Shown piece after piece: positions 1,586 through 29,995 of a stretch of DNA of 64,000 nucleotides (the first letter of the stretch is position 1; each line of letters starts with the position of its first letter). The DNA is taken from NCBI GenBank assembly GCA_965235115.1, contig OZ249436.1:31684001-31748000 (forward strand), in the 5' to 3' direction. The translations under genes were made by a program, and so were the position numbers. The notes below the pieces were generated by a model, which saw nothing but the letters and a program-made list of their open reading frames with translations, ran no database searches and was not told where the DNA came from. Source of the stretch: Laetmonice hystrix (Eukaryota).

Positions 1586-2764
1586 TTATGATCAATGTTC
1601 AAAAAATGAAGCGGCATATATTCAATTGTAATTGCTGAGGTCACTTCTGACAGGCCAGCCAACTTCCCCAGACACTCTGACCAACCAATGAAAACACTTT
1701 GACCAACCCCACCGGACACTCTGACCAACTGCCGGACACACTGACTTGCCGGATGCTCTGACCATCGGACGCACTGACTAGGATAAATCTGACGGCCCAT
1801 ACCATGGCCATGCCAATAGATGGTAATTTTGTCTTTTTGACATTTTCTATCATTTAGTATTTAGATATCTACACTAAGAAGACAAAGAGGGGCCCTTTGC
1901 ACTTTGTTGATCCCAAACCTAATCTGCTATAATGCTATGACCTATGTGTGAGCCTAGTATAATTAATATTATAGCTTTACCTTACAGTTACAATAATTGT
2001 TATCCCCTGCCCCAGGGCCAGGCTCTGCCCAGTCTCGGTCTCACGCTGTTAGATCGAGTACTATTAGTGGGCGAGCAGTGGCTCTGCCATGCAGAACCGT
2101 CATACCAGGCAGGATTGATGGGCGATAATATAAGACAAAGTGACATTTTGCCGACGTGTACACGTATAATTTCGTGCAGCATATGCTTCTAGCCCATAAC
2201 GTTAGGCGTTTATACCGGCGAAACGAGATCAATGATCAACAACTATCTCACCGAATATGTGTTTCTGTTTAATAATCTATAGCCTAGTTGTCTGGCATCT
2301 ATCATCAATCATGTAGGTACTGTGTGCCGTGGGTCGACCCTCAGCATGGCGAGATCCTAGACCAGTTCACACAGTAACTGAGGAACTGCAATCACTGCAA
2401 ACATCAAGTACAGCTAAGCTCTTTGAGCCATTCAAATTATTTTCAAATAATAAATACAATGATAATAATCCGTTCTATTCCTGCCCTAAATGTTTTCTTC
2501 AAATAGACTAACCTTCGTTGTAAACAATGTAGGTCCGGCCCAGATCACATTTTACTGAAACTATTAGACAGCACGGAATAGTACGGGATAATTCAGGAAC
2601 AATACCCGGCCGGGGAGGATCCAAATATGAATTTATTCTCTAAATTACACTCCTGTGAAGTTCAGTCACTTAAAATATAGTTAGTTACAAGTTAGTACAG
2701 TCACTATAGAGTCTACATTTCCACCGCGTGATCAGGGGCATGATAAACATGGGGACATAAACTT

Positions 2765-4124: not shown

Positions 4125-4522
4125 ATTATGACGTTATTATAGTGATGTCACAATTATTCTGATTCATAAGATACATTGTCAAGTAAAAACGTCACGATAG
4201 TGACGTCAGAATAGCCATATCAGAGAAAGTATAATTATTGTGACGTAGTGAAAATGGCGGGCCGCGATAGACAGAGCCAAGTTCCCCCAATTTCACCTTC
4301 CTATCGCTAAATTTGCTTTACGATCTGACTCTGAAACGATAACAAACAGCCCCAATAGCTCGCCCCCTGACGGGTACGGCAGTAGGCAGGCATGCCGTAC
4401 GTGCCATTCGACGAACCGCCGAGTGTGCCTGGTAAAATCCCTGTCACAATTGACCTGCATCCGGGCATCTTGTGGATCTGCATCCATTGTGAAAACTACA
4501 GACTGGCATCGCGGGCGAAAAT
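4125..4522 (+). promoter_or_regulatory. Probable promoter and non-coding first exon of the variable-exon gene
   Basis: Cluster of CRE/ATF-like sites (TGACGTCA at 4201 plus TGACG half sites), YY1-type AAAATGGCGG at 4251-4260, CpG-rich stretch, and candidate donor AAT|GTGAGT at 4522/4523. Confidence 0.5.
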
Positions 4523-6247
4523 GTGAGTATTTTGGTCCAGAAATCAATATGTTGGTCCTGGATTTCATGCCCCGGCCATGATTAGCATTTTGACCGATGC
4601 AGATTCAACAGGTTTAATACAGACATTACGTTAACACATTTTGTGTGGGGGTTAGGCGTGTCAGAAGAATGAAAACATGAGGCGATTGAATCGGAGCCGA
4701 CAAACGATGATGACAGTTGTCAGAGAGTTGACAGGGACTGTCTGCGCTGCGCCCTAATTATCATTGGCTTAAATATGCCATGCAGCCCCGTCATCATGAA
4801 TGACATTGTCATTGGCCGAATTAAGTTTAAGGCCGTAATCGCAAGCTCTGTAATTCTGTCACATAAGGGCCGCCGAAAGTCAAGGCAGGCCCTGAACTGG
4901 GGCAAACTCAGTAACGTTAGGCATTAAATAAAAATAAAAATTAAAAAAAAGTGTTTGAGCCCCCAAATAGTGAACCTCCATCCACCTTGACTTTTGTTCA
5001 CATCGAGACAAACACAAAGCCGAAGGGAAGAACCTTGCTTTAGGTTTTCGTTTATTAATTAGGGGTACGCACAACGTCTCCACGTCATAATTGCATGCCA
5101 CATAACAACCTTTCCATTTCAAAAAGATAATATTTTGAAGCACATTTTGTTAAGGCCTTTCTTTCTGTATTTGCAGGAATGATATTTGATATTTCCAAAA
5201 AAGCCTGTGCGTGTGGACTGCACAGCATAGAAGCAGTATTCTGGCTGACACGGGCCCCAAAAAGCCATAGGAACGAGTTTCTGAATGACATTTTTTTCCA
5301 AATTTTCAAGGGGGGGGGGCCAGACCTTGCCTTCAGCGCTCGTATGTCTTGCTTTGCCCAATGGGGCCCCCCGCCCTCAGATTTTCTGGATCTGCCAATG
5401 CAGCAGAAGCTCTGCTAAATTACAACCTTGGCTCAAAATAAGCAGAATCACATCCCAATTTGCATTCCAAAATTTGTGTTTTCTGATACGGTACATGTAA
5501 CAAACTAATGGGAAGCAAAATTGCAAATCACTGGTTGCAGGGGTGTGTGAAACTGGTCCTGCCACCTTCCCGCATTCCCATGTGGTTGGGTGCCAGTGGT
5601 TACATGTAATCTTTCTCACAGGTTATTGAATGGCTATTAAACATAGGCATCCCTCCAGACTGCAATACACCTGTATGGACACGTAGTTCTCGTGAGGTCT
5701 GAGATGAGTGAATCCATCATTGTGGACACCAAAACTAGCTTTAAATTAATTTTCCGTACTCATTCACAGAGCTTTATGATTTGACCATTTTGGACACCAT
5801 TTCTGCCATATTTCTGCTTTGGGCCCACCGCCTACCCCCACCCACTTCCAAAACACTGGTCCCACACCTGAATACATCAGTGATGTACTTTGTCTGATAC
5901 TAGTAAATATTCTATAATATTCATCCCAACTTTTCCAAGGTTTTCCTGCATCCCAAGTAAACTTTTCCATTTTGAAGTGACTGTTAATCCAAAATTAACT
6001 ACATTTGTATTCTAATTTTTTTTTTAATCAAAGACTACAATAAACAAAATTTGAGGGGGGGGGGGGTATTTGATTCATTCTGGATCATAGTTTCAGGAAA
6101 TTTTGAATCACATTTACAAATTGCTTCTCAAACAAACAAACAATAGCAAAATTACTTCAGGCCCCTCAAAAATTATTTCCAGCTTTGTATTGGTTGTATA
6201 AATTTGTAAATATTTTTTGTATGATTATATTATGTAAATCAAATAGT

Positions 6248-7181: not shown

Positions 7182-7600
7182 AATAGTGTTGTCAACTTTT
7201 TATAGCCAGGGGCTACTGAATTCTGCAGTTGGGCTACCATTATCTACCAAGGGCTTCCTTCCATGGGCTATTAGTTACATTTTCAATTTGGGCTGCCTTT
7301 GTACACTAGTATTATAGTATTTGATTGGACTGCTGACGCTTGAGCTAGTGGATAGAAAGTTCAGCTCATGGGTTCTCTGCTGCCACTAAAGTTCTGGGCA
7401 ACCAGTTGCTAAAAAAAAGTTAACAGTAACACCATGTGCTGTAATTGTGTAAATATATATTATATTCAGAAGTGTCCTTTAAGTTCTGTTATATCCATAA
7501 ATGAACAAAGGATTTCCATGCTTACTATATTTGGTGTTCTACATTCCAGCACCATTTTCTTTTTAGAATGTTGCTTGGCTGAAGAATCAAAAAGCTTGCC

Positions 7601-8551
7601 ATGGTAGCTAAGGCTGAGCAGCTTCGAATTAAGGCACAATTGGTAGAAGCCATCAAGGTTCTATGTAGGAATGGCCTTGGCTTCAAAGCAAACCTCAGTA
7701 TTGAAGGCCTTCTAGGAATAACTCTTGACGATGAAGACATATTTCTTGTAAGTGTACACGAATTGATTCGGAAAAATGAAGATGGAGTTCTTGAAAGTTC
7801 AACACCAATGGAAGAGCGGAATAGTTCCTCTGAACGCCATTATGGGGTGCTACAACAACAGCAACAGCAGCAGCAACAACAGCAACAACAACAGCAGCAG
7901 CGTAATATTGTGGCAGCAAGTCAGGCAATGGACAGAGTTATGCTACCCGCTCTACCACCTAGTGCCCTTGTGGTCGCTGGGTCGGCAGGAATGAGCCTAC
8001 AACAACAGGTCCAGCACCTGCAACAGCAACAACAGCAGCAGGTGGCTGCTGTGCCATACCGCACACTCTCTGTAGATCACATGACGTCACCTGTTGCCAT
8101 CACACAACGGCGCACATCCAGCCTACCCCAGTCCCATAGTAGTGACCAAATTTCATTTACCTCCACCGTGGACAGTGCAATAGGCAGTAGTGCCGGGAGT
8201 AGTACCCAACCTTCACCACATATACCAATATTGAACACTAGGCGCCGCCGTAGAACTAACAGTGACCAATTAGACCCCCTGGCTAAACGTGCAACATTGA
8301 GCACAGAAAGCTCCAATGATTCAAACAGTGTTAGTGGAGGCGAGAATGTTGTAGTGAAAAATGAGCCATTGTCAGACTCAGAAAATGAAGGGACTTCACG
8401 TTCAGTTGATAGTGACTTCACTGTGCAGACCCCAGTGTACTCAGTGGTCGGAGAGGCAGTCCCAGGGTGTTCGACATGGGATCCAAGCATCCCTAACACA
8501 CCTGTCCACACAGTCGCAATGCCAGCCACACCAGGAACACAGCCTACACAG
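7601..8551 (+). CDS. Common (constant) coding exon of an uncharacterised nuclear protein with alternative C-termini
   Basis: Acceptor TTTTCTTTTTAG| at 7566, Kozak-like GCCATGG at 7601, 317 codons to a phase-0 donor CAG|GTAAAA at 8551. The ~58-aa N-terminal module (EQLRIKAQLVEAIKVLCRNGL..LSIEGLLGITLDDEDIFLVSVHELI) is followed by polyQ, an S/T-rich linker, a basic RRRRR..KR stretch (NLS-like) and VKNE (SUMO consensus). Confidence 0.85.
7850..7900 (+). repeat. Coding CAA/CAG polyglutamine repeat
   Basis: Mixed CAA/CAG run encoding about 16 Q within the common exon; a second, shorter run at ~8000-8041. Confidence 0.9.
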
Positions 8552-9396
8552 GTAAAAGAAATACACATCTTTTCATAAATTTGTGAGCCCAAGGCAAAGG
8601 TCTTTGCAGGCATGACCATTATCATTTTCTGAATGTATAATAAAATAAAGATTTCTAAACTGCAAGAATAGTGTAAGAGGTAAGGGTATCGTGAATGATC
8701 AATGTTAAGATTACAGATTTGTTTTTGTAACCTCCCTCCCAAATATCGGTTTACAATTACAGACAGTGCTTGAACACTGCAAACAAAATGAAAGGATGCT
8801 AAACCGTATTTTATAAGTCGTTTTCATGACTTTTCGTGCTAGAATCATGCTTGCATAATTATTTTCAAAAGAAGATAATATGGCTGTAAAGAGAAATAAG
8901 CAGCCTTTCCATGATGTGATATGTGGTGACTTTTTTAAATGATGGTAGCAGATGATTCTTGTAGTTTTACCAATCAAATTATTAATTTCAGGTTCAAGGT
9001 AGTAATCTTTAAATTGGCAGTGAATTGTCAAACAGTTACCGGTATGTTATGGTGTGTACATGTACATAAATCGATTGATTTGATAGATCTATGACAAAAC
9101 ATGACAGTTACTCGATACCTGACACATACACACATTTCTGTATACTACTTGCGCCCATTCTCAAAGCAGTGGTCACTGTGGTGTAGTGTAAGAATGGATT
9201 TATGCATGGACTGCCAGGTGACAAATGGCCATTCAACTTCTACTCATCCACACTGATTGCCAGTGGCTGGCTTATTATACAGTCGCAGGCTTTACCATTT
9301 TATGCATAGGAGAAGAAATTACGTTAGGCTTCAACTCAATGTCTTCCAATGAGCACAACTACCTTATTTGCCGTGGCGCCTTATGGAAGTGAGTTA

Positions 9397-9752
9397 TAGG
9401 GCTGGGACGATACACTCTGTTCACGATACGATACGTATCTCAATATTTACTCCACAATACGATATGTATCTAAATTCCATTCAAACTGACTACTGATCAA
9501 GTGCAGGTATTATCTTTCTCTTTGATGTTTGCTCTGGAGGAGTAAATGGAGCAATAGTGCAATACATAGAGAACATGGCCGCAATATCAGTATGACACAA
9601 TGGGCCATGGCTTTCATTAGTTTTCTATCACTTTTTATCACGTTTTAACGCCTTTTTGATAACAAATAAAGAATATTAACATATCGTATTCAGTTTTTGA
9701 AAAGTGAAAAAATCCGGATTCACGATAGTATCGATGAATTGTCACAGCACTA
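9397..9752. mobile_element. hAT-type MITE
   Basis: Termini TAGGGCTGGGACGAT / ATTGTCACAGCACTA; perfect 8-bp TSD GTGAGTTA (9389-9396, 9753-9760). Confidence 0.85.
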
Positions 9753-10472
9753 GTGAGTTATAAGAGCCATGATATCAGATGGTGCTGTAAATTATATCTG
9801 AAATGGTTGAGATGATATTTATGACACTCTGTTGTTATTGGACCCAGTCCTTGTCATTTCCTGATTTTCTTTTTAATATTTCTAAATCATGACAATACAT
9901 CAAGGTACAGCTGTTTCATGAATGCTCCATATTTTAGACATTTTGTGAACAAATATTGGCTCCATAAATATGCAATGAAACCTTTTGTGACCCTTTCATT
10001 GCATGAAATGTTAAGTGTAGTGGCTCACAAGGCATGCATGTCATCTTCATGGTACGGTAAATTTTGAAATATTTTACTCTTGAGGGCAATGCTTCAAGTT
10101 CAACACCTAGGGGGTACTGGTAAGCAGGGGCTAGCAACTTCCTCCGTTAAGATTCAGGCAAAGTAGTTTATCCCTCTCCAATCTCAGTCAAAGTAATCAA
10201 TCCAAATGAGGCTTATTCCCTGATGGCTTTTGAACCAACTCCCACCATTATAGCTGATACATCAAGTATAAGATTTCTTTTTTTTCTATAGAGAACTTTT
10301 TTTTTCTTTTTAAAGTTAAAAATAAGCATTGGTTTCCATTTTCCATAGTTTCACATGTGCTAGCCTAAGGCTTTGGTGCTATTATTGTTTAAATGTAACT
10401 AAGGGACTGGTCCGTCTGCACTGGCACTTGGCTCTTCCATACTCTAACCCCAGTTTTCCTTTCTCCCCCTAG

Positions 10473-11054
10473 GTGTTGTCAGGGACCAGGGGCATGATCA
10501 GTTGCTATGGTAACAACCACGCTAATCACCATGGCAACAGCAGAGGTGTTGTGCTGCCGGAGACGGCGCTGTGCTCGGCCCACCGTAGCATCTTGGAGCA
10601 GACAGGGTGCATAGTGTTCGCCTCCAGCGTGGTGCTCCAAGACGGCACAAAGACTCACACACGAACTAATGCTCACCTCGTGCAGATCATGCAGGACATG
10701 ACGTATCCGCTCGGCCATCCACGACACGTCGGCCAGTACAAAGAGGTCATGGCGGGCCGCTACTCTCGTAAGGTATTTTACAAGTGTCCCCCAGAGGTGA
10801 TTCGTCAGGAGATGCTGGGGGCATATGGAATCTCGCTCAAGACATACACTAAACTTTTTTATAGTGATGTCAAACCTGTGACCTCAAGCTCAAAGTGGTT
10901 TGAAACGGTTGAGACGCTAATGTTAAATTTTCCATATGGACCACGACTTTTCCCATTACAGATGATGGGTTTAACAGAAGACCAGATGAGGGTGCTGAGC
11001 ATGGTGAGGGTGTACAAAGAGACCAAACAAAACCAAGGACAGGCTGCTAAATAA
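10473..11054 (+). CDS. Alternative terminal exon A (193 aa, unrecognised globular-looking domain)
   Basis: Branch-like CTCTAAC (10442), polypyrimidine tract and TAG| at 10472. The open frame starts exactly at the acceptor in phase 0, matching the 8551 donor, and ends in TAA. Confidence 0.75.
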   Translation: MLSGTRGMISCYGNNHANHHGNSRGVVLPETALCSAHRSILEQTGCIVFASSVVLQDGTKTHTRTNAHLVQIMQDMTYPLGHPRHVGQYKEVMAGRYSRKVFYKCPPEVIRQEMLGAYGISLKTYTKLFYSDVKPVTSSSKWFETVETLMLNFPYGPRLFPLQMMGLTEDQMRVLSMVRVYKETKQNQGQAAK

Positions 11055-12787
11055 TAACCTACCATCACAAGGACAAAAAACAAAGCCACAACCCAACCAC
11101 TCCAACAGTTACAAGGACAGGAAACAATATTTAAAGTCATAATTGCTAAATCGATCTCCCACTAATTACTGTATCAGTCTGAGCCAATAACAGACTACAG
11201 AATGATAAGTTAAAACAATTTCACTTTAGGAGTTTCAGCTAGGATCAGACACCTTTTACCAACCCCCAAGAGTTGTGTGTTTCCTGTTCATATCATTCGT
11301 ACGGTACATTCAGAGTATTTACGAGCACTCTTGGCAGCCTGTTCTGACAGTACAGCCTACTGCAGCATGTATCCACTATTTCAGGTTATGGCAAGAAGAA
11401 CTCTGGCTCAAATCATAGATTCTATTGAATTTAAAAAAAAGAAAATCAATTCACAAGAGACATATATTTCCAGTCAACAGACATATCCCTTGGGTGCATT
11501 ATAAATTAATATGGAAACCGGAGTAAAATGACGAAAGACACATTCCCGCCGATAACAACACCGACAGCATGTATATGTAGGGAGATGGAGCATGTTTAGA
11601 GAAATAAGAACGGTCATGGCTTTTTAAAAGTTCTTCAACATATATTGTCTCTGTTTTGGTGTGTATGTTGGCTTGATGTGATTACCTCGATTACAACTAC
11701 CGGTACCAGGCTTAATGTTTGTGTCGGTATTGGTATCGGCCATCAACATGAACAATTGGTAAGACTTTGTGGTGCATGTTGTACTTCATATATGCAAATA
11801 CATACACACATCATGTATGCATATATGATAAGTAAATAATATACATACATATAAATATATATATTTGTAAAGGAAGAGTTTGTGAAAGTGTTGGTGTGCA
11901 AATCCATGATGTGCTACACTTCATAGAGAAGGTTACAGTCATAATGTGTTGTGTGGATCAAAGTGTGACTCAATTTATAAAAGGCAGGAACCAGTATCTC
12001 GCATAACTTTGGTGCTGAGCATCTTCTGCAGACTTAGGCCAGAGAAAAGGTGTTCTTTTGAGCAGAGGTTTATCTTTTAAAAATGTATGCTTACAGGTTT
12101 AGTTTATTTATACAAAGTCTCTTATTTTGAAAACGAGACTTTTTCATTAGGCATTACTCATGTAGTGTCATGTTAGCGTCTCCATCAGTATTCTTTCTTG
12201 ACAGTTTTCCAAGGTGAAACACATACTTTACAGACTTAAAAGAGGGAGAGGGGAAGAAACCTCAAAATCTGTGATTACTACATGTCTGTGTCTGATGGGT
12301 TTCTAAAAAAATTTCAGCATGTAAAACGGTATGGTGTAGATGCTGCCCAGTGTATTAAAAAGATGTGTTCACCAACATGGTTGATTAATGAAAATGGTTG
12401 GATTGGCTGGTGAACACCTGGCAGGCATCCAGAAGTGAATGCTTTCCTTGTTTGCCTTTCACGTCAAGGTCTGGGAACCATTTATTCTCAGGTGAGAAGG
12501 GAGAGACTGATTGGATATTGGACGGTCACAGTCGTCCTGTGTCTATTAACAAGAGTTCTACAACTTGTTTATTGTCTTTTTACAAACTGGCTTTAACATT
12601 CAGAAATGAAGCCTCCAAGCTGAATTCTCAGTCTTTGGTTTCAGCGTCGACATGGAGAGAGGATGATGGAGAAGTCCAAAGTTTACAAGCCTTTTGTAGT
12701 TTTAACGGTGCTAACAACATTATGAGGCTACATGTAAATTGTATCCCTTATTACCCGGGTCAAACTGATTTCCCAAATGTTATGTTA

Positions 12788-13147
12788 GATAAGCGCCTCA
12801 GACTACATAAATCAATAAATGTATATCCACAGAAATGGAGAAATCTAATTAAATTCAACATTACAGTTGCCTGTTGTCGCTATAAAACGATCGGCTTATG
12901 CCTGGTTGTTGACAAAATTAAGTTGACCTGGCATTGAATTAAACAGCCAATGAAATTCATTGGTTCATCACTCGATGAATTTCATTGGCTGTTGAAGTCA
13001 ATGCCAGGCCAACAATTGTTGAATTTCATTAGATTTCTCCATTTCTGTGGATATAAATTAATTGTTGAATTTCATTAGATTTCTCTGTATCTGTAGATAT
13101 ACATTAATTTTATTGATTTATGTACATGTGTAGTCTAAGGCCTTATC
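12788..13147. repeat. Long foldback / palindromic MITE
   Basis: Outer arms GATAAG..CAGACTACA / TGTAGTCT..CTTATC; middle arms TATATCCACAGAAATGGAGAAATCTAAT..TTCAACA and its reverse complement; inner 34-bp arms at 12927-12960 / 12975-13008. Confidence 0.8.
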
Positions 13148-14804
13148 TCACCTAACAGCCTATGATGTCTTCATTTTGGAATCATTGAACTAGGAGATAA
13201 TCATGCATGGCTTTAATAGTCCTTATTTTCCTTCTGTCAACATTTCAAATGTGTCCGATTGAAGTAATTCGTGCAAAAAGAATAAATGTGTAAAAGGTAT
13301 AAAATCCATACAAATATAAAGTAGAAGTCCGATTATACTGCGTGAGTAAAGCATGATAACTACTGATCTCAATGTGTGGACTGATTACAGCCAGTCTCAT
13401 AATCAAAGGATCATGTTGCTTGTTATGGTGAACGTCATGGAAGGCAGATCATCGGCCTTAGAAAGTCGCTGCTGTTTAGCATGAAGAGTTTATTGTATAT
13501 AATGGACAACTTTTTATTAAACACCTGAAAGTATTGACCTTTATTGAAAGGAAGGAGAGCAGGTATTTCTTGATTTAGGTCTTTAGAAAACTGCCAAATT
13601 GACCAGTTAAGTTTTCAGTGTGCAAGATATCGACTACATCGAGAATACAACTTAGACAAGACAACTCTGATAGCCATCAATGTATTTGAGATACAAGCTG
13701 AAAACTACTAAGATGATAATATCTTATTTAGCCGCAAAATGTGTTCATTCCTGTATAGGTGGGAGCCAGTTTTCCTTCTAAGTGATATCATCGGTATTAT
13801 ATTTTCAAGAGTACGTTGAATCATTGTTCTCCTGCAGACTTGTAGTAGCTAAATTCAGTTGACCTTTTGTATTGTTATTGTCAATAAGTGAGTTTTCTAA
13901 CGCCTAGCGTCATTGAGTTCCCTTTAGTGATCGACAGCGGAGATTGTAGTAGTGGTGGGTACAAGGTACATGTAGTACGGAAATATTCTTAAACAAATTA
14001 CAAATGTTATGACCGTACATACCAAGTTGTTTTTAGCTTGCTGCGTCTCCATCGTTATGCACGGTACATGTGCGTTTATTTTTTATAATTTCATTGGGAG
14101 GGGAGATATTCTGGCAAACTGTGTGGTAAAGTTCTTGACAAGGTACAGGATGTGAGAAAGACTTACATGTAATTAACTTGGTGCTTATTGACCAGTGTGA
14201 AATATGGCTTGTCAACACTCTTAATCTCCCAGGTCTGAGAGGGGCTGCATACCTTAAAAATGGGTGCTTATCGGAAGATAATGTGATAAAAACACATTTA
14301 TCAGGGGGCGTGGCATATAGGTTGTGAAAATAATTGTCCGAGCAGCTTATGTATACGGCAAACAACCATTGGCCATTTAATACTGAAGCACCAAACAGAC
14401 TAATAAAACGCTCGATATCAGAAAGTTGCGTAATATTCATCAAATTGCCCAGTAAGTTATAAAGTTTTGCAGCCGACCAGCTATTTATTTTTGTATTTAT
14501 TTATTTCTGAAAGAAAAATGGCAAAGCATCTCTTGCCATGCTAACTAGTCTCCTTATCTTATAAACACGTGCATGTGGTCGTAACAAAACTTCCGAGTTG
14601 ACCTGAATGAAATATTTGTTCACGTTGCGTTGGCCCCTGTTGAATTACTGTGATACGCCCAGTGTGCTGTGTGACAACATTGGTGAAGTGGTGAACTTTG
14701 TTATTGTGTGGTATTGTGTATTTTCAAATTGTGTATTATAAACAAATATTATAAAACTATATTGTTGAGCCACTGAATGTATACATGAATATATACGAAA
14801 ATGA

Positions 14805-14810
14805 AATAAA
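14805..14810 (+). terminator. Candidate polyadenylation signal for the exon A isoform
   Basis: AATAAA with upstream TGTA and downstream GT/T-rich sequence, ~400 bp before the exon B acceptor. Confidence 0.35.
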
Positions 14811-15221
14811 TTTTCAGTGTGTAATTATGTGCGATAGGTTCACGTTCTTCTTGTACAAGCGGGCGTAAGACACGTGTCTCATGAACTTCTTCTTTAGAGG
14901 GTCTCGAAGTCACAAGATAGTAATTCCTTTTGATTTGAGACTTGAGTCGCATTTCATGACCAAGCCATGATATTGGACACCGTTTTTATGACTTTCAAAT
15001 ATTTCGTTTTCTAAAACAACGGATTTTCAATTCATATAGGCTAAGCACCAGTTACACTGTTAACGATAACACTTGAAAGTGAAAGAATCACTCAATGCAT
15101 ATAACTAAACAAGTTTTCGGGATTTTAGCGAGTGACTTGTATAGGCCTATCACACATGGCACATCAGAAATAAATATGGTAGAACTTTGTGTCTAATTCG
15201 TTTTTCCAATATATATTGCAG

Positions 15222-15818
15222 AATTGGGTGATGAATATAATTCAGCGCCAACAGCATCGTGGATCAACGATCTCAGCACATCTTGACGAGCAGCGGACAC
15301 GTGACCGTGATCGCATGCGCAGATATCGTGATCTGTTACGAACAAACACGGGCGAGTACGAGGAACACAAACGGCGGGACCGGGAACGTACGCGCATCTA
15401 CCGGGAAAAACTCAGAACAAATGACCCGGACAAATATGCCGAGATGAATAGAAAAAATGCCGAGCAGCACAGGAAAAAGAGAGAGATATTACGGGCACTT
15501 GCAGCGGCTGAACATACTGTTCACCAAGGGACAACGTTTGCATTGGATTCAGGATATTTCAGTGGGGTCATGGGGATGGGAATGGGCATTGGGATGGACA
15601 ACAATTGGCTGGCCCCAGACCAAATAGGGGGCAACATAGCCACAAACATTGCTACGATGGGTGTGAACGTAAACCCTAGCCTGGCTACCCTGGCGCATAA
15701 TGCAGCAACTCAAGAAGCTGCCGGTAGAATAAACCAGGATCCCCAAGCTTGTCCACTGCCTCCTCACGCAGAGCTGCAGAATCAACCGCAAAGGTTGGAA
15801 GATAATACGGCCACCTAG
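15222..15818 (+). CDS. Alternative terminal exon B (198 aa; repeated basic helical, putative DNA-binding motif)
   Basis: Branch-like GTCTAAT (15191), T-rich tract, TTGCAG| at 15221, phase 0. Encodes ~25-aa repeats RDRDRMRRYRDLLRTNTGEYEEHK / RDRERTRIYREKLRTNDPDKYAEMN / RKNAEQHRKKRE and ends in TAG. Confidence 0.75.
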   Translation, partial: NWVMNIIQRQQHRGSTISAHLDEQRTRDRDRMRRYRDLLRTNTGEYEEHKRRDRERTRIYREKLRTNDPDKYAEMNRKNAEQHRKKREILRALAAAEHTVHQGTTFALDSGYFSGVMGMGMGIGMDNNWLAPDQIGGNIATNIATMGVNVNPSLATLAHNAATQEAAGRINQDPQACPLPPHAELQNQPQRLEDNTAT

Positions 15819-15977
15819 TGTCAGATTATTGCATTCACGAGAGGATATTTCTGGCTCCTAGGCCTATAGGTAGCTGCAAAGAGTAGGGGAACGTTTCAAG
15901 ATGGCAAGCTGATGATTCTGGCCCTAGATCTATATTTCTGGAATAATTCGGCCCCACCTCAGCCTAGTTTATCTTAA

Positions 15978-16576
15978 GGCCAGACTTAATTAATATTTAG
16001 GTTTACGCGCATTTTTCGACAGGTCGGTAGGGAGGGGGGGGGGCAATTGACTTTTTTTTAACCGTCTTATTTACATTGACAATTTAAGGTCGGTAGGTGG
16101 TAAAAAAATGTATGAATGGGAAGAGTTTCTTGAAATAGAACAAACAAATCAAGTCATTTGCAAAATATGTTTAAAATATTATTATTAAAATTAAAAAATT
16201 ATCCCAGCAACAGGCACTGTCGGCGGGGACAAAATAAATAAACTGGTCTTGAATTTTTAATTTTTTTTTTTTCCAAATTTCGGAAATCTATGGTCGGCGG
16301 GCGCGTTAACCGAATTTACACAAATTCTGTTTGTGATATTGCCCAACAGACTATAATGTAGCTCTTTTATAGTCAAGCAATTTCAGCATATAAATATGAT
16401 ATTAAAAAGCCCCCGCAACAGAATATTAAAATTAAAAAATTATCCCAGCAACAGGCACTGTCGGCGGGGACAAAATAAATAAAACTGGTCTTGAATTTAA
16501 TTTATTTTTTTTTCAAATTTCGGAAATCTATGGTCGGCGGGCGCGTAAACCGAACTGCTATTAAAAAAGTCTGGCC
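15978..16576. mobile_element. PIF/Harbinger-like MITE with internal duplication
   Basis: TIR GGCCAGACTT..GGTTTACGCGC / GCGCGTAAACC..AAGTCTGGCC; TAA TSD; a ~135-bp segment is duplicated (~16183-16315, ~16424-16554). Confidence 0.8.
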
Positions 16577-17408
16577 TAAGTAGCCTACATACCTTTTGCT
16601 ATAGTGCGCTAGTGTCACCACGTGGATTTTCTTCTGTGAATATGTACTAAGACGTTATTCGATTCTTCAGTGTATTGCTATATGTACGATGACAAGTGAA
16701 AACTCTGTCAAGTCAGCAGTTAAGGAATTTGTTGAAGCTTTGTTATCACTTTGTTAAGACTGTTTTAATTATTTTGCTATAGGCCTGGCCTAACTTAGGC
16801 CTGATGATATGAGAACTTCCATTTTGGATCGTCGGGGCTATAATTCAATATATGTATTTATTTATCTATTTATCAATTGTATTGAGCACTGTTAGCATTA
16901 AAGCATTCACAGAAAAAAATGTTTTTTTCCGTGAAGGACAAAATGATATACAATCAACGTTTTTTGGTATCTTTTTTTCTTCTTCTAGCTGTATTCCCTA
17001 AATCGCGCAACTGTCTTCCCCCATCCCTTTCTATGTCTCGCCCTTAGGCCCTATATAGAAATGTTGATTGTGATTTTAGAAGCGGTTCAATGTAGTGCGC
17101 TGTTGATAGAGCTCACAAAAGTCATATGTGATCGATCTCATGCGCCGAGTAGCTGTATCAAACTAATAACCGTGACTGCTTGGCGACAGTAGGACGGCTT
17201 GTATCGGAACGGTACTGAACTGAATGAAGGGTCATGAAACATAAAATAATTATAGTAGTACCATAATTAAAATTATTAGCCAAGGAATTTCGGGAGGAGG
17301 GGCCCGGGACCCGCGTAGGCCTATGTATTTGTTTTCAAATATAAATTTTAACGTTGACCCCAGTTATATAAGAGTCCCTTTTTATATTGCCAGTTTCTTA
17401 ATTTTCTT

Positions 17409-17482
17409 CAGTGGCGGATTGGGGGGGGGGCAGGGGGTTTTTGCCCCCTCCCCTCCTTACCAAAATCCTGGATCCGCCCCTG
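17409..17482. mobile_element. Very short MITE (same family as 48530-48642)
   Basis: Termini CAGTGGCGGAT / ATCCGCCCCTG. Confidence 0.6.
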
Positions 17483-18208
17483 TTCCTGTTTGATATTGTT
17501 TTCCACGTTCGACACGGGGTTTGTCCCCCTCGCCCGCCCTTTTTCACAAAACTCCACCTAGAAAGTTGTGGAACGCTAATCACGTACCGTAGGCCTACCA
17601 CTATAACATGTAATAGGCTTATGCTATAGGCTCAGATCTATGCCTACCTCGAAATATTCATCGAATATGGAAACCCCTAGACAAAAACTAATATTCCGTA
17701 CAGATTCAAAACGTCACACGTACCACTTCATACAACTAATACAGTCGAACTTCGTGGAAAGTCACGTGAGGGAATTTCCTTCCAGTTTAAATCCAATAGC
17801 AGTGGAACCACGGCATTTTTTACTTTCTATTGATCACGATTGTCGGTTGTACTGCAGATATAACACGCAGACCCCTGTACATGTGCTGCACCCATCTTTC
17901 AATTCCTGTCAGCGTCCCTATCCCGAGGAGACGCAGCTACGTCATCCCGTCCCACACTGACGGATACAGCGATATTTTTTGCTGTTGACAACCCAGCCCA
18001 AGACCAGGGTGCCCAACAGTTTACACAATACATATTAGAGGAACAAACCTAACACAGCATTATGAGATTACGACCGGCCAACTGTTATCGGGTTTTCTCA
18101 TGTTTTCTCTTGACCCACTTGCACACCCTACATGCACAGACCATAATATCCCGGCTGGTGGCGTCACCTCTTGGTAAAGCACACAATCTGCCTTGTAGTT
18201 TAATACAG

Positions 18209-18681
18209 CAGGGATATATCTAGGATTTCAAGAGGGCATGGCACTCATATCCAGAAAAGGGCACTATAGGCTATGTGTCGAAGAGGCATTTGAACATACA
18301 GTTTTCTAAGGCACAGGGCACAGTCTAGAGATGAATTAACTGCATGTTAATTGATCAGCTCGAGTACAACAATGGTTCTTCTGTGCATCTGATGTCAAAA
18401 TAAAATAACAAATAATTCAAACCTTCCTTCCCCGATGATCTGTGGTTATTCCTCATTAAAATATCTTGCTTCACCAGTAGTATGTATAGTACACTTAAAA
18501 CTGCAGTCAATTCGCAGCAGTCACTGGGCATGTGTGGCGGTATTATAAGGGCACCACCGGCGGATCTTTGGTTGTAAGAAAGGCACAAGTGGCGGCTTTT
18601 GGGGCAAAAAAGGGCATGGATGGCACAGCTGGTTGGGGGCATGGCGGGCGGCCGTTCCAAATTGGCCTAGATATATCCCTG
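18209..18681. mobile_element. MITE
   Basis: Perfect 16-bp TIR CAGGGATATATCTAGG / CCTAGATATATCCCTG; TSD not clear. Confidence 0.7.
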
Positions 18682-18956
18682 AGTTGTATCATCTATATTC
18701 TACGGTCAATTTTAATTTTTATGCAAGTAAAATGACGAGACAAAGGCAAATATTGTAATATATCCAATCTGTATTGTTGTTTCAATGCTTTGTGCACAGA
18801 GCAAAAGACTAGCTTTTATTTTCAGATGTTTCTCACCAGTCCTCGACTACCGCTCGTAATATGTAAGAGTCTTTAAGATATGGAAAGTTTGTGTCTTCGT
18901 CCTGTCCAAGTAGATGCTGACATTGCACCTTGAAAAGCTCAAAATTCTTCCAAGAG

Positions 18957-18988
18957 TTACCAGTGATACTTCACATGACGATGGTACC
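18957..18988 (-). CDS. ATP5MF: ATP synthase subunit f, mitochondrial, exon 4
   Basis: Acceptor TTTTGTCTTGCAG; completes (R)YHRHVKYHW-stop, matching the KYH C-terminus of subunit f. Minus-strand AATAAA at ~18815. Confidence 0.9.
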
Positions 18989-19360
18989 CTGCAAGACAAA
19001 ATAAAAAGTAGAGATCAACGAATATATTAATTAACTACATGCATTGTACATGTATAAATATCTGCAACACAGCATTTGATGCGGTCTGTGGGAGGCATAA
19101 ATTCATGTCAGAAAACCTATAATTCCATTGATCTTCTCCTGAAAAACAAAACGTCAGTGCTTCTTAAGGCATGCACAAGCACCGTACTGTGACTACAATC
19201 AATTGAGGCATGTGGAAGAAAAACTGATGAACCCTGTTAGCAGCCAGTTTTAACGGCATGCATTCAGGACTGGTGTACTCAACACTGCATTAATTAACAG
19301 AAGTAGTACTGCCACAACGTTTACCACACTGGCTCAAATTGGAAAAAAGTTCATATTTAA

Positions 19361-19628
19361 CCCTTTCAAGATGGGCCCCTTGTGGCCGAGACATGCACTA
19401 GTGACGACGTAACAATTGCGTGAATGTGCCGTAAGGACGGGCCAGCGCAGCTAGCACTCAATTGTGACGTTACGTCACAGCGTTGCCCTGTCGCTCTATA
19501 CACAATGGGCTCTGACATAAGTCAAAATGATGCCTCAAGGCATCATCTGGCCCCCGCCCGGAAATGCCTCAGGGCATCATCCGGCCCCCGCCCGGGAATG
19601 CCTCAAGGCATCACCCGTCCTTAATGGG
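19361..19628. mobile_element. piggyBac-like MITE in ATP5MF intron 3
   Basis: TTAA|CCCTTT..GATGGG ... CCCGTC..ATGGG|TTAA. Confidence 0.7.
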
Positions 19629-19671
19629 TTAATAAGTTTGCTCATAAAATATGATTAAAACAATTACTTAC

Positions 19672-19788
19672 TTAGCCCAGCGTACAGATTCAAATAGTAG
19701 AAAACGGACAGACCAAGTGCCAACTGTCCCAGTGGTGCAAACCCTGCCCTCTTGGGTGCTAACCAGGTCTGTACCCAGCGCCAATATC
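19672..19788 (-). CDS. ATP5MF: ATP synthase subunit f, exon 3
   Basis: AG/GT bounded, 117 nt, phase 1-1; (G)YWRWVQTWLAPKRAGFAPLGQLALGLSVFYYLNLYAGL contains the TM helix. Confidence 0.93.
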
Positions 19789-20069
19789 CTGAAGGGGAAA
19801 CATTGATAAACAGATTTTCATTTGAAGTAATTATCATACACACAAAGTGGCGATGGCCGAGTGGGCCTGGCTGGAGGGGAATAGCTGATAGGTTACGCCT
19901 GATGCACAATCAGGAAAGAGTTCTTCTATCTCCACTAGAAAAGTGCACAAAAAGTCTAAGTTGCCTCAGAATTCTTTTCATCATCTCAAATCTCTGTGGA
20001 CAGTAAGTTGAGGTTTGAGTTAGTCCAATGTAGCGCATCCATCCAGTTAACAACAACCTCAATATTTAC

Positions 20070-20168
20070 CTCTGCTGCAAGCACGTGTCATATCAACAGG
20101 GTGGAAGCTTCGGCGGGAGATCCAGGACCCCAGCTCTCCAACCTTGACCTCACTCAGCTTTAGGTCAG
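20070..20168 (-). CDS. ATP5MF: ATP synthase subunit f, exon 2
   Basis: AG/GT bounded, 99 nt; DLKLSEVKVGELGSWISRR..ACSR matches the family VKLGEL.SW motif. Confidence 0.93.
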
Positions 20169-20458
20169 CTGTTGGTAAAGAAAACATACACATTCATCAA
20201 GACACAATGTACAATGTAGTATAGTTATCAGTAACCATCAAGCGATATTAAAAACTGTTCACAGACTGCCAACTGTCCAGGGCCCAGGGTCCGGTTTTTA
20301 AAATAAGCCAAGGCTTACTGGTAAGACTGGGCTTACAGTAAGAGTAAGACTAGGCTTACGTTTCTGTTTTTAAAACACTTTCTAAGCCTGGCTTATGCCA
20401 TGCCTAGGCTTAGCCGTTGTCAAGGCTGGAAAACTGACGTCACAATCGAGACAATGGT

Positions 20459-28477: not shown

Positions 28478-29995
28478 ATGTCAGAAAAACAATCCATTGG
28501 GGAGACACATGGAAATGATGGTCAGGCTAGTCACTGCTATAAGTCACTCTTCAATCAAAAGCTGTGGGATGCAGCTATCACAAAGAAGGACAACATAGCA
28601 AACAAAGACAGATGTCAAATCTCTGTTGTTGAAAACTGTACAATTGGCCAAAGAAGAAAGCAAGCATGTGGCTATCCAGAAGATGGAGAAGGATCTTGGG
28701 GAGGAGACCGGTCTTGTCTAGATATAGCACAAGTCCCCATGGTGGCTGTGGCTAATATATTGTCTTTTTTAGAATGGAAAGATAAATTATCAGCTGTCCG
28801 AGCAATACCAGTGTGGCACAGTCCTCTCTGTACAGTAAAGGCGTGGCCAGTGCTTGCATACCATGAGGATGCTTCAACCAAGACTGATGTCCGTCAGAAA
28901 GTTTCTCAGTGCATCTCTACCTATGGAAAATACATAACAAGTATAAAACTAGCCTTTAATTACTGGTACCCTGTGGGCAGGAGAGGCAGGCAGGTCCTGC
29001 ATGAAATAGCAACAAACTGTGCACAGTTACATACACTTTGTATTGCTGACACAGTGTGGAGCGAGCAAGCAGAATGTGCCCTTAATCAAGTGTTAGTTAA
29101 CTGCCCCAAACTGAGGGACCTTGCTCTGGTGCGACCAGTCTTGGCATGGAGTGAAGAAGACGATAATGTTGTGACTATTATTGGCCAACCACACCACGCT
29201 ACGAAACTCACTAGGCTTATACTGACGAGTGAATCGCTCTTGGAACATGAAGGACCTCTACATATCCTACAAAACTTCACTTCTCTACATACTTTAAAGA
29301 TACGACGGGAAGAGCTGAGCGAAAACATTCTCGTACAACTGGCACAGCATAAACTGGAAAAGCTCAGCTTGTTCCTTGATGAAGAGGTAGAGTATGGTGT
29401 GCCAATGATATATTCAAGTTCATTGTGGGAAACGGTATGCAAACAGAGTCCCAAGTTTGTGCTCCATCTGGTGCTGAAGAACATCATTGTGTTAAGGTCC
29501 AGCTTCCCGTCTGGTGCTCCACTGAATACCCTTGTGATGGTGGACCTCTCGGCCTCGCTAACCAAAGGCATTCTAGACACCATCACAGCCCAGTACTCGG
29601 CAACTCTCCAGACCTTTGTCTATACTAAATCATGTCAGCTTGACTGTGCTCAAGTTGAGGACCGGCGCCTCCCAGTTGCCCTGTATGATTTGGTACGTCA
29701 TTGTAGCAGTTTACACACCCTTGTATACGGCTTCCAAATATCCTCCACAACAGCACTTATGATTGCCAAAGTGCGAAGGCTCAACCATTATGTGTTACTG
29801 CTGGATGAAGTAACCTTTGAACAGGATTGGCAAGTACAACCCGACTGGAGTGCTGAATTCCTAACATGGTTAAAATCGAGTGGCTCTAGCTTGTGCAATC
29901 TTGAAACAGCAATGTCAGAACTGTTAGAATATCCTTGGAGAATGTCAACACAGTTTAGTATGTGGGAAAATGTGAATTTCTATTGCAATCTTTGA
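28478..29995 (+). CDS. F-box/leucine-rich-repeat protein (FBXL8/FBXL3-type), single coding exon
   Basis: 505-aa ORF with an F-box-like segment (VPMVAVANILSFLEWKDKLSAV..W), cysteine-type LRRs (NCAQLHTLCI, NCPKLRDLAL, HCSSLHTLV) and a C-terminal DW..PDWS.EF..WL..LL.YPW motif like invertebrate FBXL8-like proteins. Confidence 0.85.
   Translation: MSEKQSIGETHGNDGQASHCYKSLFNQKLWDAAITKKDNIANKDRCQISVVENCTIGQRRKQACGYPEDGEGSWGGDRSCLDIAQVPMVAVANILSFLEWKDKLSAVRAIPVWHSPLCTVKAWPVLAYHEDASTKTDVRQKVSQCISTYGKYITSIKLAFNYWYPVGRRGRQVLHEIATNCAQLHTLCIADTVWSEQAECALNQVLVNCPKLRDLALVRPVLAWSEEDDNVVTIIGQPHHATKLTRLILTSESLLEHEGPLHILQNFTSLHTLKIRREELSENILVQLAQHKLEKLSLFLDEEVEYGVPMIYSSSLWETVCKQSPKFVLHLVLKNIIVLRSSFPSGAPLNTLVMVDLSASLTKGILDTITAQYSATLQTFVYTKSCQLDCAQVEDRRLPVALYDLVRHCSSLHTLVYGFQISSTTALMIAKVRRLNHYVLLLDEVTFEQDWQVQPDWSAEFLTWLKSSGSSLCNLETAMSELLEYPWRMSTQFSMWENVNFYCNL

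Follow-up and report, generated by a model that had tools for sequence, protein, structure and literature searches.

A 58-residue N-terminal domain defines a large, uncatalogued family of genes that appear to switch DNA-binding tails through alternative last exons

Lineage-limited N-terminal modules are found in tetrapods (KRAB, SCAN), cyprinid fish (FiNZ) and arthropods (ZAD, TTK-BTB). ZAD and SCAN are modules of this kind carried on an exon before the zinc-finger exons, the former having four conserved zinc-binding cysteines and the latter being all-helical, with a length of ~84 amino acids. The BTB/POZ core comprises ~100–120 amino acids and five or six helices, and MADS cores form dimers in which the helices pair above a sheet common to both copies. 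FiNZ and KRAB are likewise described, in the accessible part of PMC10547256, as lineage-limited N-terminal modules on an exon upstream of zinc-finger exons. The accessible part of PMC11426971 describes TTK-type BTB factors as having many isoforms with unlike DNA-binding domains and many paralogues per genome, gives an N-terminal FxLRWN motif as their hallmark, and reports no TTK motif from either Annelida or Mollusca. Our literature search found no lineage-limited N-terminal module described for annelids or molluscs and no description of the domain considered here, its motifs or its layout, InterPro, CDD and subscription papers being out of reach; nor is the domain listed in the accessible part of the spiralian-motif screen of Wu et al. 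2020 (PMC7441323).

The window analysed here is the whole stretch of 64,000 nucleotides from Laetmonice hystrix, and it contains a gene whose first coding exon opens with a domain of 58 residues (Table 1). On balance we favour the reading that this domain is an association module with no DNA binding of its own, through which isoforms and paralogues pool different DNA-binding tails. A more ambitious reading, which we advance tentatively and consider slightly less probable than its negation, is that the family represents an unnamed spiralian counterpart of TTK-BTB: an oligomerising domain in an arrangement unmatched to any solved structure searched here, originating independently of BTB, present in 10–20 or more genes per genome, many of them with arrays of last exons, and providing a cross-assembling combinatorial code of developmental or chromatin-architectural regulators.

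Table 1. Positions of the domain, linker motifs and candidate exons of the window gene, and of exon A-type domains in two related loci.
Feature	Position	Strand	Basis or remark
Common coding exon, residues 1–317	7567–8551	+	acceptor 7566/7567; phase-0 donor CAG/GT at 8551/8552
N-terminal 58-aa domain, residues 1–58	7601–7774	+	HMM match 1–58, E 2e-27
Domain helix, residues 4–25	7610–7675	+	AlphaFold2
Domain strand 1, residues 31–42	7691–7726	+	AlphaFold2
Domain strand 2, residues 46–57	7736–7771	+	AlphaFold2
Poly-glutamine run Q85–Q100, low-complexity linker	7853–7900	+	translation
Bipartite NLS-like stretch: five arginines 214–218, then PLAKR 226–230	8240–8290	+	
Hydrophobic run and SUMO-type site VVVKNE (K253), then acidic/serine stretch	8348–8365	+	
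Short conserved GC[ST]xW motif close to common-exon end	8465–8479	+	
Candidate last exon A, phase 0, 193 aa	10473–11054	+	acceptor 18/20 pyrimidines
Uncatalogued ~140-aa domain in exon A, conserved VF[YF]KCPP	~10581–11009	+	
Candidate last exon B, phase 0, 198 aa	15222–15818	+	phase-0 acceptor, open frame
Basic helical repeat of ~25 residues in exon B	~15291–15491	+	
Exon A-type domain in relatives	L002:1817–2260; L044:1530–1919, 1968–2369		last exon of family

The start ATG lies in a strong context (gccATGg) 34 bases inside the common exon, and translation of 7601–7780 on the plus strand gives the 60 residues from which the original prediction was made. With a 120-row alignment, AlphaFold2 models the domain as one helix followed by a long beta-hairpin (mean pLDDT 93, pTM 0.74). 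C22, T41 and D43 are invariant in all 120 aligned rows, polar or charged columns are conserved at D6, Q7, R9, K11, E16, E35 and E54, and the 119 relatives are 43–70% identical to the window copy. Net charge has a median of -2 and a maximum of +1, being negative in 102 of the 120 rows and +4 or above in none. At the hairpin tip the 120-row column profile places adjacent hydrophobic runs on both faces (columns 37, 38, 40, 42 and 47–50). Four loci forming a subfamily (L072, L075, L076, L079) have ~8 additional residues at this tip, which is consistent with the tip being an exposed loop.

A phmmer search of 1.84 billion representatives, clustered at 50% identity, recovered 1,254 relatives of the domain at E≤0.001, of which 106 reach E≤1e-10. 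Among 150 relatives listed of the 1,254, the domain starts at or before residue 15 in 140 and with a methionine in every case, and seven carry two tandem copies. The domain attains the cut-off of no Pfam family, whether in 150 proteins at E≤0.001 or in 16 short members at E≤10. The 58-residue module is therefore a real, large and uncatalogued domain family with a confident predicted fold. The compact N-terminal domain of ~58 residues that had been proposed, and its uncharacterised status, are upheld by the pLDDT of 93, by 1,254 relatives, a number far beyond chance, and by the Pfam result; neither of the outcomes named beforehand as contrary to it, a match to a known domain, or no homologues together with no confident fold, was encountered. 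An amphipathic helix followed by alternating-hydrophobic strands had also been proposed: the order of helix and strands agrees with the AlphaFold2 model, and the alternation is only partial, both faces being hydrophobic near the tip.

Thirty clusters were looked up for their source, and two members carried an organism name, both of them C2H2 proteins of the annelid Paralvinella palmiformis. Of the lophotrochozoan range suggested in the original prediction, these two annelid proteins are the part supported here. One scan of metagenome contigs returned 79 domain loci; because four contig-id prefixes account for 23, 15, 10 and 8 of these, many domain paralogues per animal are suggested, with the qualification that alleles and mixed samples may inflate the locus counts. 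Searches for longer relatives (735–2095 aa) produced one match among 7,999 candidates, and viral contigs yielded no domain relative, with none of 74 pattern matches. Four short prokaryotic matches, which the domain HMM does not recognise, were set aside as chance.

Several features of the family's genomic distribution were recorded in passing. One subfamily (P0190–P0262) accounts for 37 of 104 new proteins, several on contigs of equal length, and the P0249 cluster has 20 members; a recent burst of copying in one lineage perhaps lies behind both. Domain genes sit close together, with three on one 29-kb contig (L019/L034), two of them back to back, and two on the contig of L017. At six loci (L068, L069, L070, L071, L073, L078) the domain is split in two pieces after approximately residue 27–28 or 36, probably by an intron.

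Structural searches with the monomer model gave no match to the PDB at E≤0.001 in Foldseek, no match in a viral structure library, and a best VIA Z of 4.3 among 48,161 chains (3.9 on a second look), which is no clear match. PDB sequences contained nothing on the domain, and the best ESM Atlas entry (0.79) is unnamed. These fold-search negatives do not show that the fold is new. The nearest transcription-factor shapes belong to obligate MADS dimers (7nb0, Z 3.5, rmsd 3.4, 43 residues aligned; 1n6j, Z 3.3, rmsd 4.5, 50 aligned), a likeness that is weak (Z 2.3–3.5, 0–8% identity) and within the range of a common arrangement. Like the MADS-box cores of SRF, MEF2 and SEPALLATA3, the domain has a long helix and then a beta-hairpin, for which a similar dimer is a plausible model; unlike them it carries no basic arm, is neutral to acidic, lacks a Pfam match and has a hairpin of greater length. 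The domain might nevertheless be a diverged MADS-like or winged-helix unit that itself binds DNA, given that the order of helix and hairpin is the same, that MEF2 and SRF chains occupy 11 of the best 50 rows in the second of the two VIA searches, and that the Pfam winged-helix region STN1_2 matches 23 of 120 members weakly. We consider this very unlikely: the median charge of -2, with no row of 120 at +4 or above, is ill suited to it, the protein begins at the helix with no basic N-terminal arm before it, the basic DNA-contacting helix of MADS proteins is likewise missing, DNA-binding domains are encoded separately downstream, and the SRF-TF profile was matched neither in 150 proteins at E≤0.001 nor in the 16 short members at E≤10. 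An identity with STN1_2 was rejected since its best match (E 0.00093, 19.6 bits) falls below the cut-off of 27.2.

Comparison with the other described modules gave similar results. Most domain rows contain a single cysteine (91 of 120; two in 28, three in one) and one cysteine is invariant, so that the domain, unlike ZAD, has no four-cysteine zinc site; unlike SCAN it is not all-helical, its pLDDT-93 model having two strands of 12 residues each. FiNZ, at 28 aa, is shorter and less structured. Its position on an exon upstream of zinc-finger exons is that of ZAD, SCAN, KRAB and FiNZ modules, from which the family differs in being joined also to non-finger domains and in offering a choice of short finger sets where those modules precede a single long array. 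A strongly diverged BTB, cut down to the first helix and following hairpin, was considered on account of a faint helix-then-hairpin likeness that we take to exist between the two. The position, kinds of partner and gene layout are also those of TTK-type BTB factors, as set out in the accessible part of PMC11426971. This derivation is scarcely credible in a domain of 58 residues with one helix and two strands: neither the 150 proteins at E≤0.001 nor the 16 short members at E≤10 gave a Pfam BTB match, FxLRWN is absent from the 120-row column profile, and the absence of the TTK motif from Annelida and Mollusca, reported in the same part of that source, also speaks against it. By the features tested, the domain is not BTB, ZAD, SCAN or MADS, and it would resemble them in the way it works.

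Between the domain and the end of the common exon lies a disordered linker, in which motifs were counted over the 111 of 150 listed relatives with a tail of at least 120 residues and compared with shuffled tails. SUMO-type sites ([VIL]Kx[ED]) occur in 100 of the 111 (shuffled mean 24.9), basic clusters in 72 (9.2), the composite of hydrophobic run and KxE in 45 (0.5) and GC[ST]xW in 13 (0.03); the window protein carries all four. The NLS-like and SUMO-like motifs first noticed in this one protein are thus enriched across the family, and to judge from sequence they fit a nuclear regulator.

The most telling feature of the family is the alternative last exon. Downstream of three domain genes, L017+, L019+ and L019-, whose common exons end in phase-0 donors, lie seven, five and six same-strand exons respectively with at least three C2H2 fingers each (a count that excludes ORFs of one or two fingers and loci that have just one finger exon). 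Within these 18 exons the best-scoring acceptor is in phase 0 in 17 (binomial p 1e-7 at one third), a stop follows within 29 codons of the last finger in 17, and eight have no methionine ahead of the first finger. All 11 exons submitted to Pfam from L017 and L019 contain C2H2 fingers; among the 150 relatives the figure is five, most entries being single-exon calls that read into the intron. The opposite-strand exons of L019 have their own domain exon upstream, and trans-splicing is not needed for the arrays seen because every one is downstream of a domain exon and shares its strand. One gene supplies apparent evidence at the product level: the Logan-derived proteins P0163 and P0278 share 222 of 223 residues and then continue into different finger sets, diverging exactly where the genomic sequence P0277 (L020) enters its intron, and L020 has a third, different finger exon. 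Domain genes therefore appear to switch DNA-binding tails by means of alternative last exons, although finger exons may instead form chains of internal exons, the donor search having covered the common exons. The simple phase-0 layout is not universal, because in L001, L029 and L053, outside the count of 18, the best finger-exon acceptor is in another phase; the best donors of 60 loci comprise 39 in phase 0, 20 in phase 1 and one in phase 2.

Other DNA-binding domains also occur downstream, comprising BrkDBD in an exon of L003 (E 2e-6, above the Pfam cut-off) and HTH_Tnp_Tc5 in an exon of L034, just below it. The inference that the domain takes the place occupied elsewhere by BTB, ZAD or SCAN was accordingly confirmed, with C2H2 and other DNA-binding domains following it in relatives. 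A further 35 downstream ORFs gave a finger match in three cases and no Pfam match in 32, and many of them are probably not exons. Exons that we took by eye to be Pipsqueak-like (L034:11976–12152) or BEN-like (L020:2638–2997, L040:2812–3084, L049:5423–5599) have no Pfam match and these labels were dropped; a GATA exon in L067 was left out, since it may belong to a different gene.

The layout in relatives, seen in the finger exons, 17 of 18 in phase 0 behind phase-0 donors, and in the P0163/P0278 pair, is of the lola/mod(mdg4) type on an unrelated fold. As in the arthropod TTK-BTB genes lola, mod(mdg4), broad, tramtrack and pipsqueak, a common N-terminal module and a long linker precede a variable C-terminal tail; the tails are C2H2 or helix-turn-helix in both, and paralogues, many per genome in TTK-BTB, seem to be numerous here too. 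The differences are that the present domain is half the size, with one helix and one hairpin, that it has no FxLRWN motif, that it is present in an annelid, and that its finger exons mostly hold 3–4 fingers against 1–2 in TTK-BTB genes.

In the mechanism that we propose, the domain would be the N-terminal module common to a large family of transcription factors in invertebrates. One common exon, encoding the domain and the disordered linker with its NLS-like and SUMO-type motifs and ending at a mostly phase-0 donor, would be joined to a last exon chosen from several, every one of which encodes a separate DNA-binding unit: as a rule 3–4 C2H2 fingers, and in some cases a Brinker-type or CENP-B/Tc5-type helix-turn-helix. 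For the window gene the candidate tails would be exon A, with its conserved uncatalogued domain, and exon B, with its basic repeat. Two copies of the domain would associate with themselves or with other members by pairing their helices and merging their hairpins into one sheet, as in a MADS dimer, possibly with further assembly into higher oligomers, and a single complex could in this way bring together the different DNA-binding tails of isoforms and paralogues, as with arthropod TTK-type BTB factors. Oligomerisation is our best inference, and pairing between different members would follow the same route; a partner seems to be needed because one helix cannot cover a hairpin that is hydrophobic on both faces at its tip. 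In the AlphaFold2 model of P0003, a natural tandem, both copies have a pLDDT of ~90 and the pTM is 0.51, against rough estimates, made with no control, of 0.27–0.34 were one copy rigid and 0.45–0.51 were both placed. On this model the tandem seems to form one packed body; copies so nearly alike may be placed together by default. The tandem model found no match in Foldseek and a best VIA Z of 5.4 (rmsd 6.5). A two-copy complex prediction run with no alignment scored 0.14 (mark 0.32), and speaks neither for nor against pairing.

The main rival to association is that the domain chiefly recruits a co-repressor or co-activator, as KRAB and FiNZ do, and is completed by that partner instead of by a second copy. 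Conserved polar and charged columns at 43–70% identity across 119 relatives, and a negative net charge in 102 of 120, would suit this role. FiNZ and KRAB are also short acidic N-terminal modules on an exon of their own before the finger exon, according to the accessible part of PMC10547256. We nonetheless think recruitment unlikely as the main function, given that tandem copies in seven of 150 listed relatives and the pTM of the tandem fit self-pairing, and that the domain folds confidently alone, with regular strands. Recruitment and self-association are not exclusive and can coexist.

The window ORF runs to 325 codons, of which the last eight are intron beyond the donor; a 325-residue protein was rejected on these grounds, the exon ending after residue 317, and the same Q/V read-through at the end of the first ORF is seen by eye in many relatives. 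The interval from the donor to the following gene, which is on the minus strand and ends at ~18830, contains 13 phase-0 acceptor candidates, judged like the donors by simple scores made for this analysis. Two of them open long frames, those of exons A and B, and the other 11 open at most 67 codons. Both exons have a GC content of 0.51, against 0.36–0.37 in the preceding introns, and they supply the only two plus-strand frames of 190 codons in 8552–18800, none of 200 resamples giving any. Exon A is homologous, at 32% over 128 aa (E 8e-17), to the phase-0 exon that comes next after the domain in L044, where there are two copies, and at 31% over 144 aa to the exon in the same position in L002; the domain tree (80 rows, 58 columns), which is mostly unresolved, groups the window copy only with P0002 and P0006 and gives no link to L002 or L044. 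Because it has no Pfam match at E≤10, exon A is, on its sequence, regarded as a second uncatalogued domain; ESM Atlas and phage searches gave no match, PDB sequences gave nothing (best E 0.75), and the domain may be winged-helix-like. Exon B, for which no homologue was found among the domain loci and proteins collected, is the weaker candidate. We took its repeat to be STPR-like, a label that was rejected since Pfam gives no match.

The window gene would be spliced from its common exon to either exon A or exon B. It is also conceivable that exon A alone is used, or neither exon, and that exon B belongs to an untranslated region or is DNA unconnected with the gene: the 15 joints listed of 111 include none from 8551 to 10473 or 15222, the collected loci and proteins hold no homologue of exon B, and run X4 has contigs upstream of the exon B acceptor as well (13403–14711). 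This is improbable in view of two phase-0, GC-rich exons, each open for more than 190 codons and unmatched in 200 resamples, of the same-position homologues of exon A in L044 and L002, and of the exon B variants, two of three among those listed falling at third positions and being silent by reading. Run X4, one of four from one sample and one study, looks like RNA because of a CT..AC joint in the neighbouring gene. One X4 contig spans 8244–8551 and ends on the last base before the donor, where contigs of X1–X3 continue, and X4 depth is zero in two intron bins; as these observations come from a single study, they were not counted as support.

For annotation, the 58-residue profile now retrieves the whole family, and we predict that, in these genomes, many of the short zinc-finger gene models that stand alone will prove to be alternative exons belonging to a few loci. 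The family offers a case of convergent gene architecture, alternative last exons, on an unrelated fold, and a protein small enough to be an easy structure target, together with the second uncatalogued domain of exon A.

Minor features surround the window gene. A four-codon upstream ORF (7568–7582, plus strand) lies just inside the common exon before the main ATG, and a possible first, non-coding exon spans 4251–4522 on the same strand, with a GTGAGT donor at 4523 and, at 4251, a motif that we take to be YY1-like. On the 3' side the gene is bounded by a convergent neighbour (18830–20180, minus strand), whose intron 18988–19670 is joined in run X4 and which, on a Pfam WRW match slightly below the cut-off (E 3e-5), probably encodes subunit f of mitochondrial ATP synthase. 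Further downstream, 28478–29995 on the plus strand is an intact single-frame ORF of 505 residues, which has no Pfam match and by eye may be F-box/leucine-rich-repeat-like.
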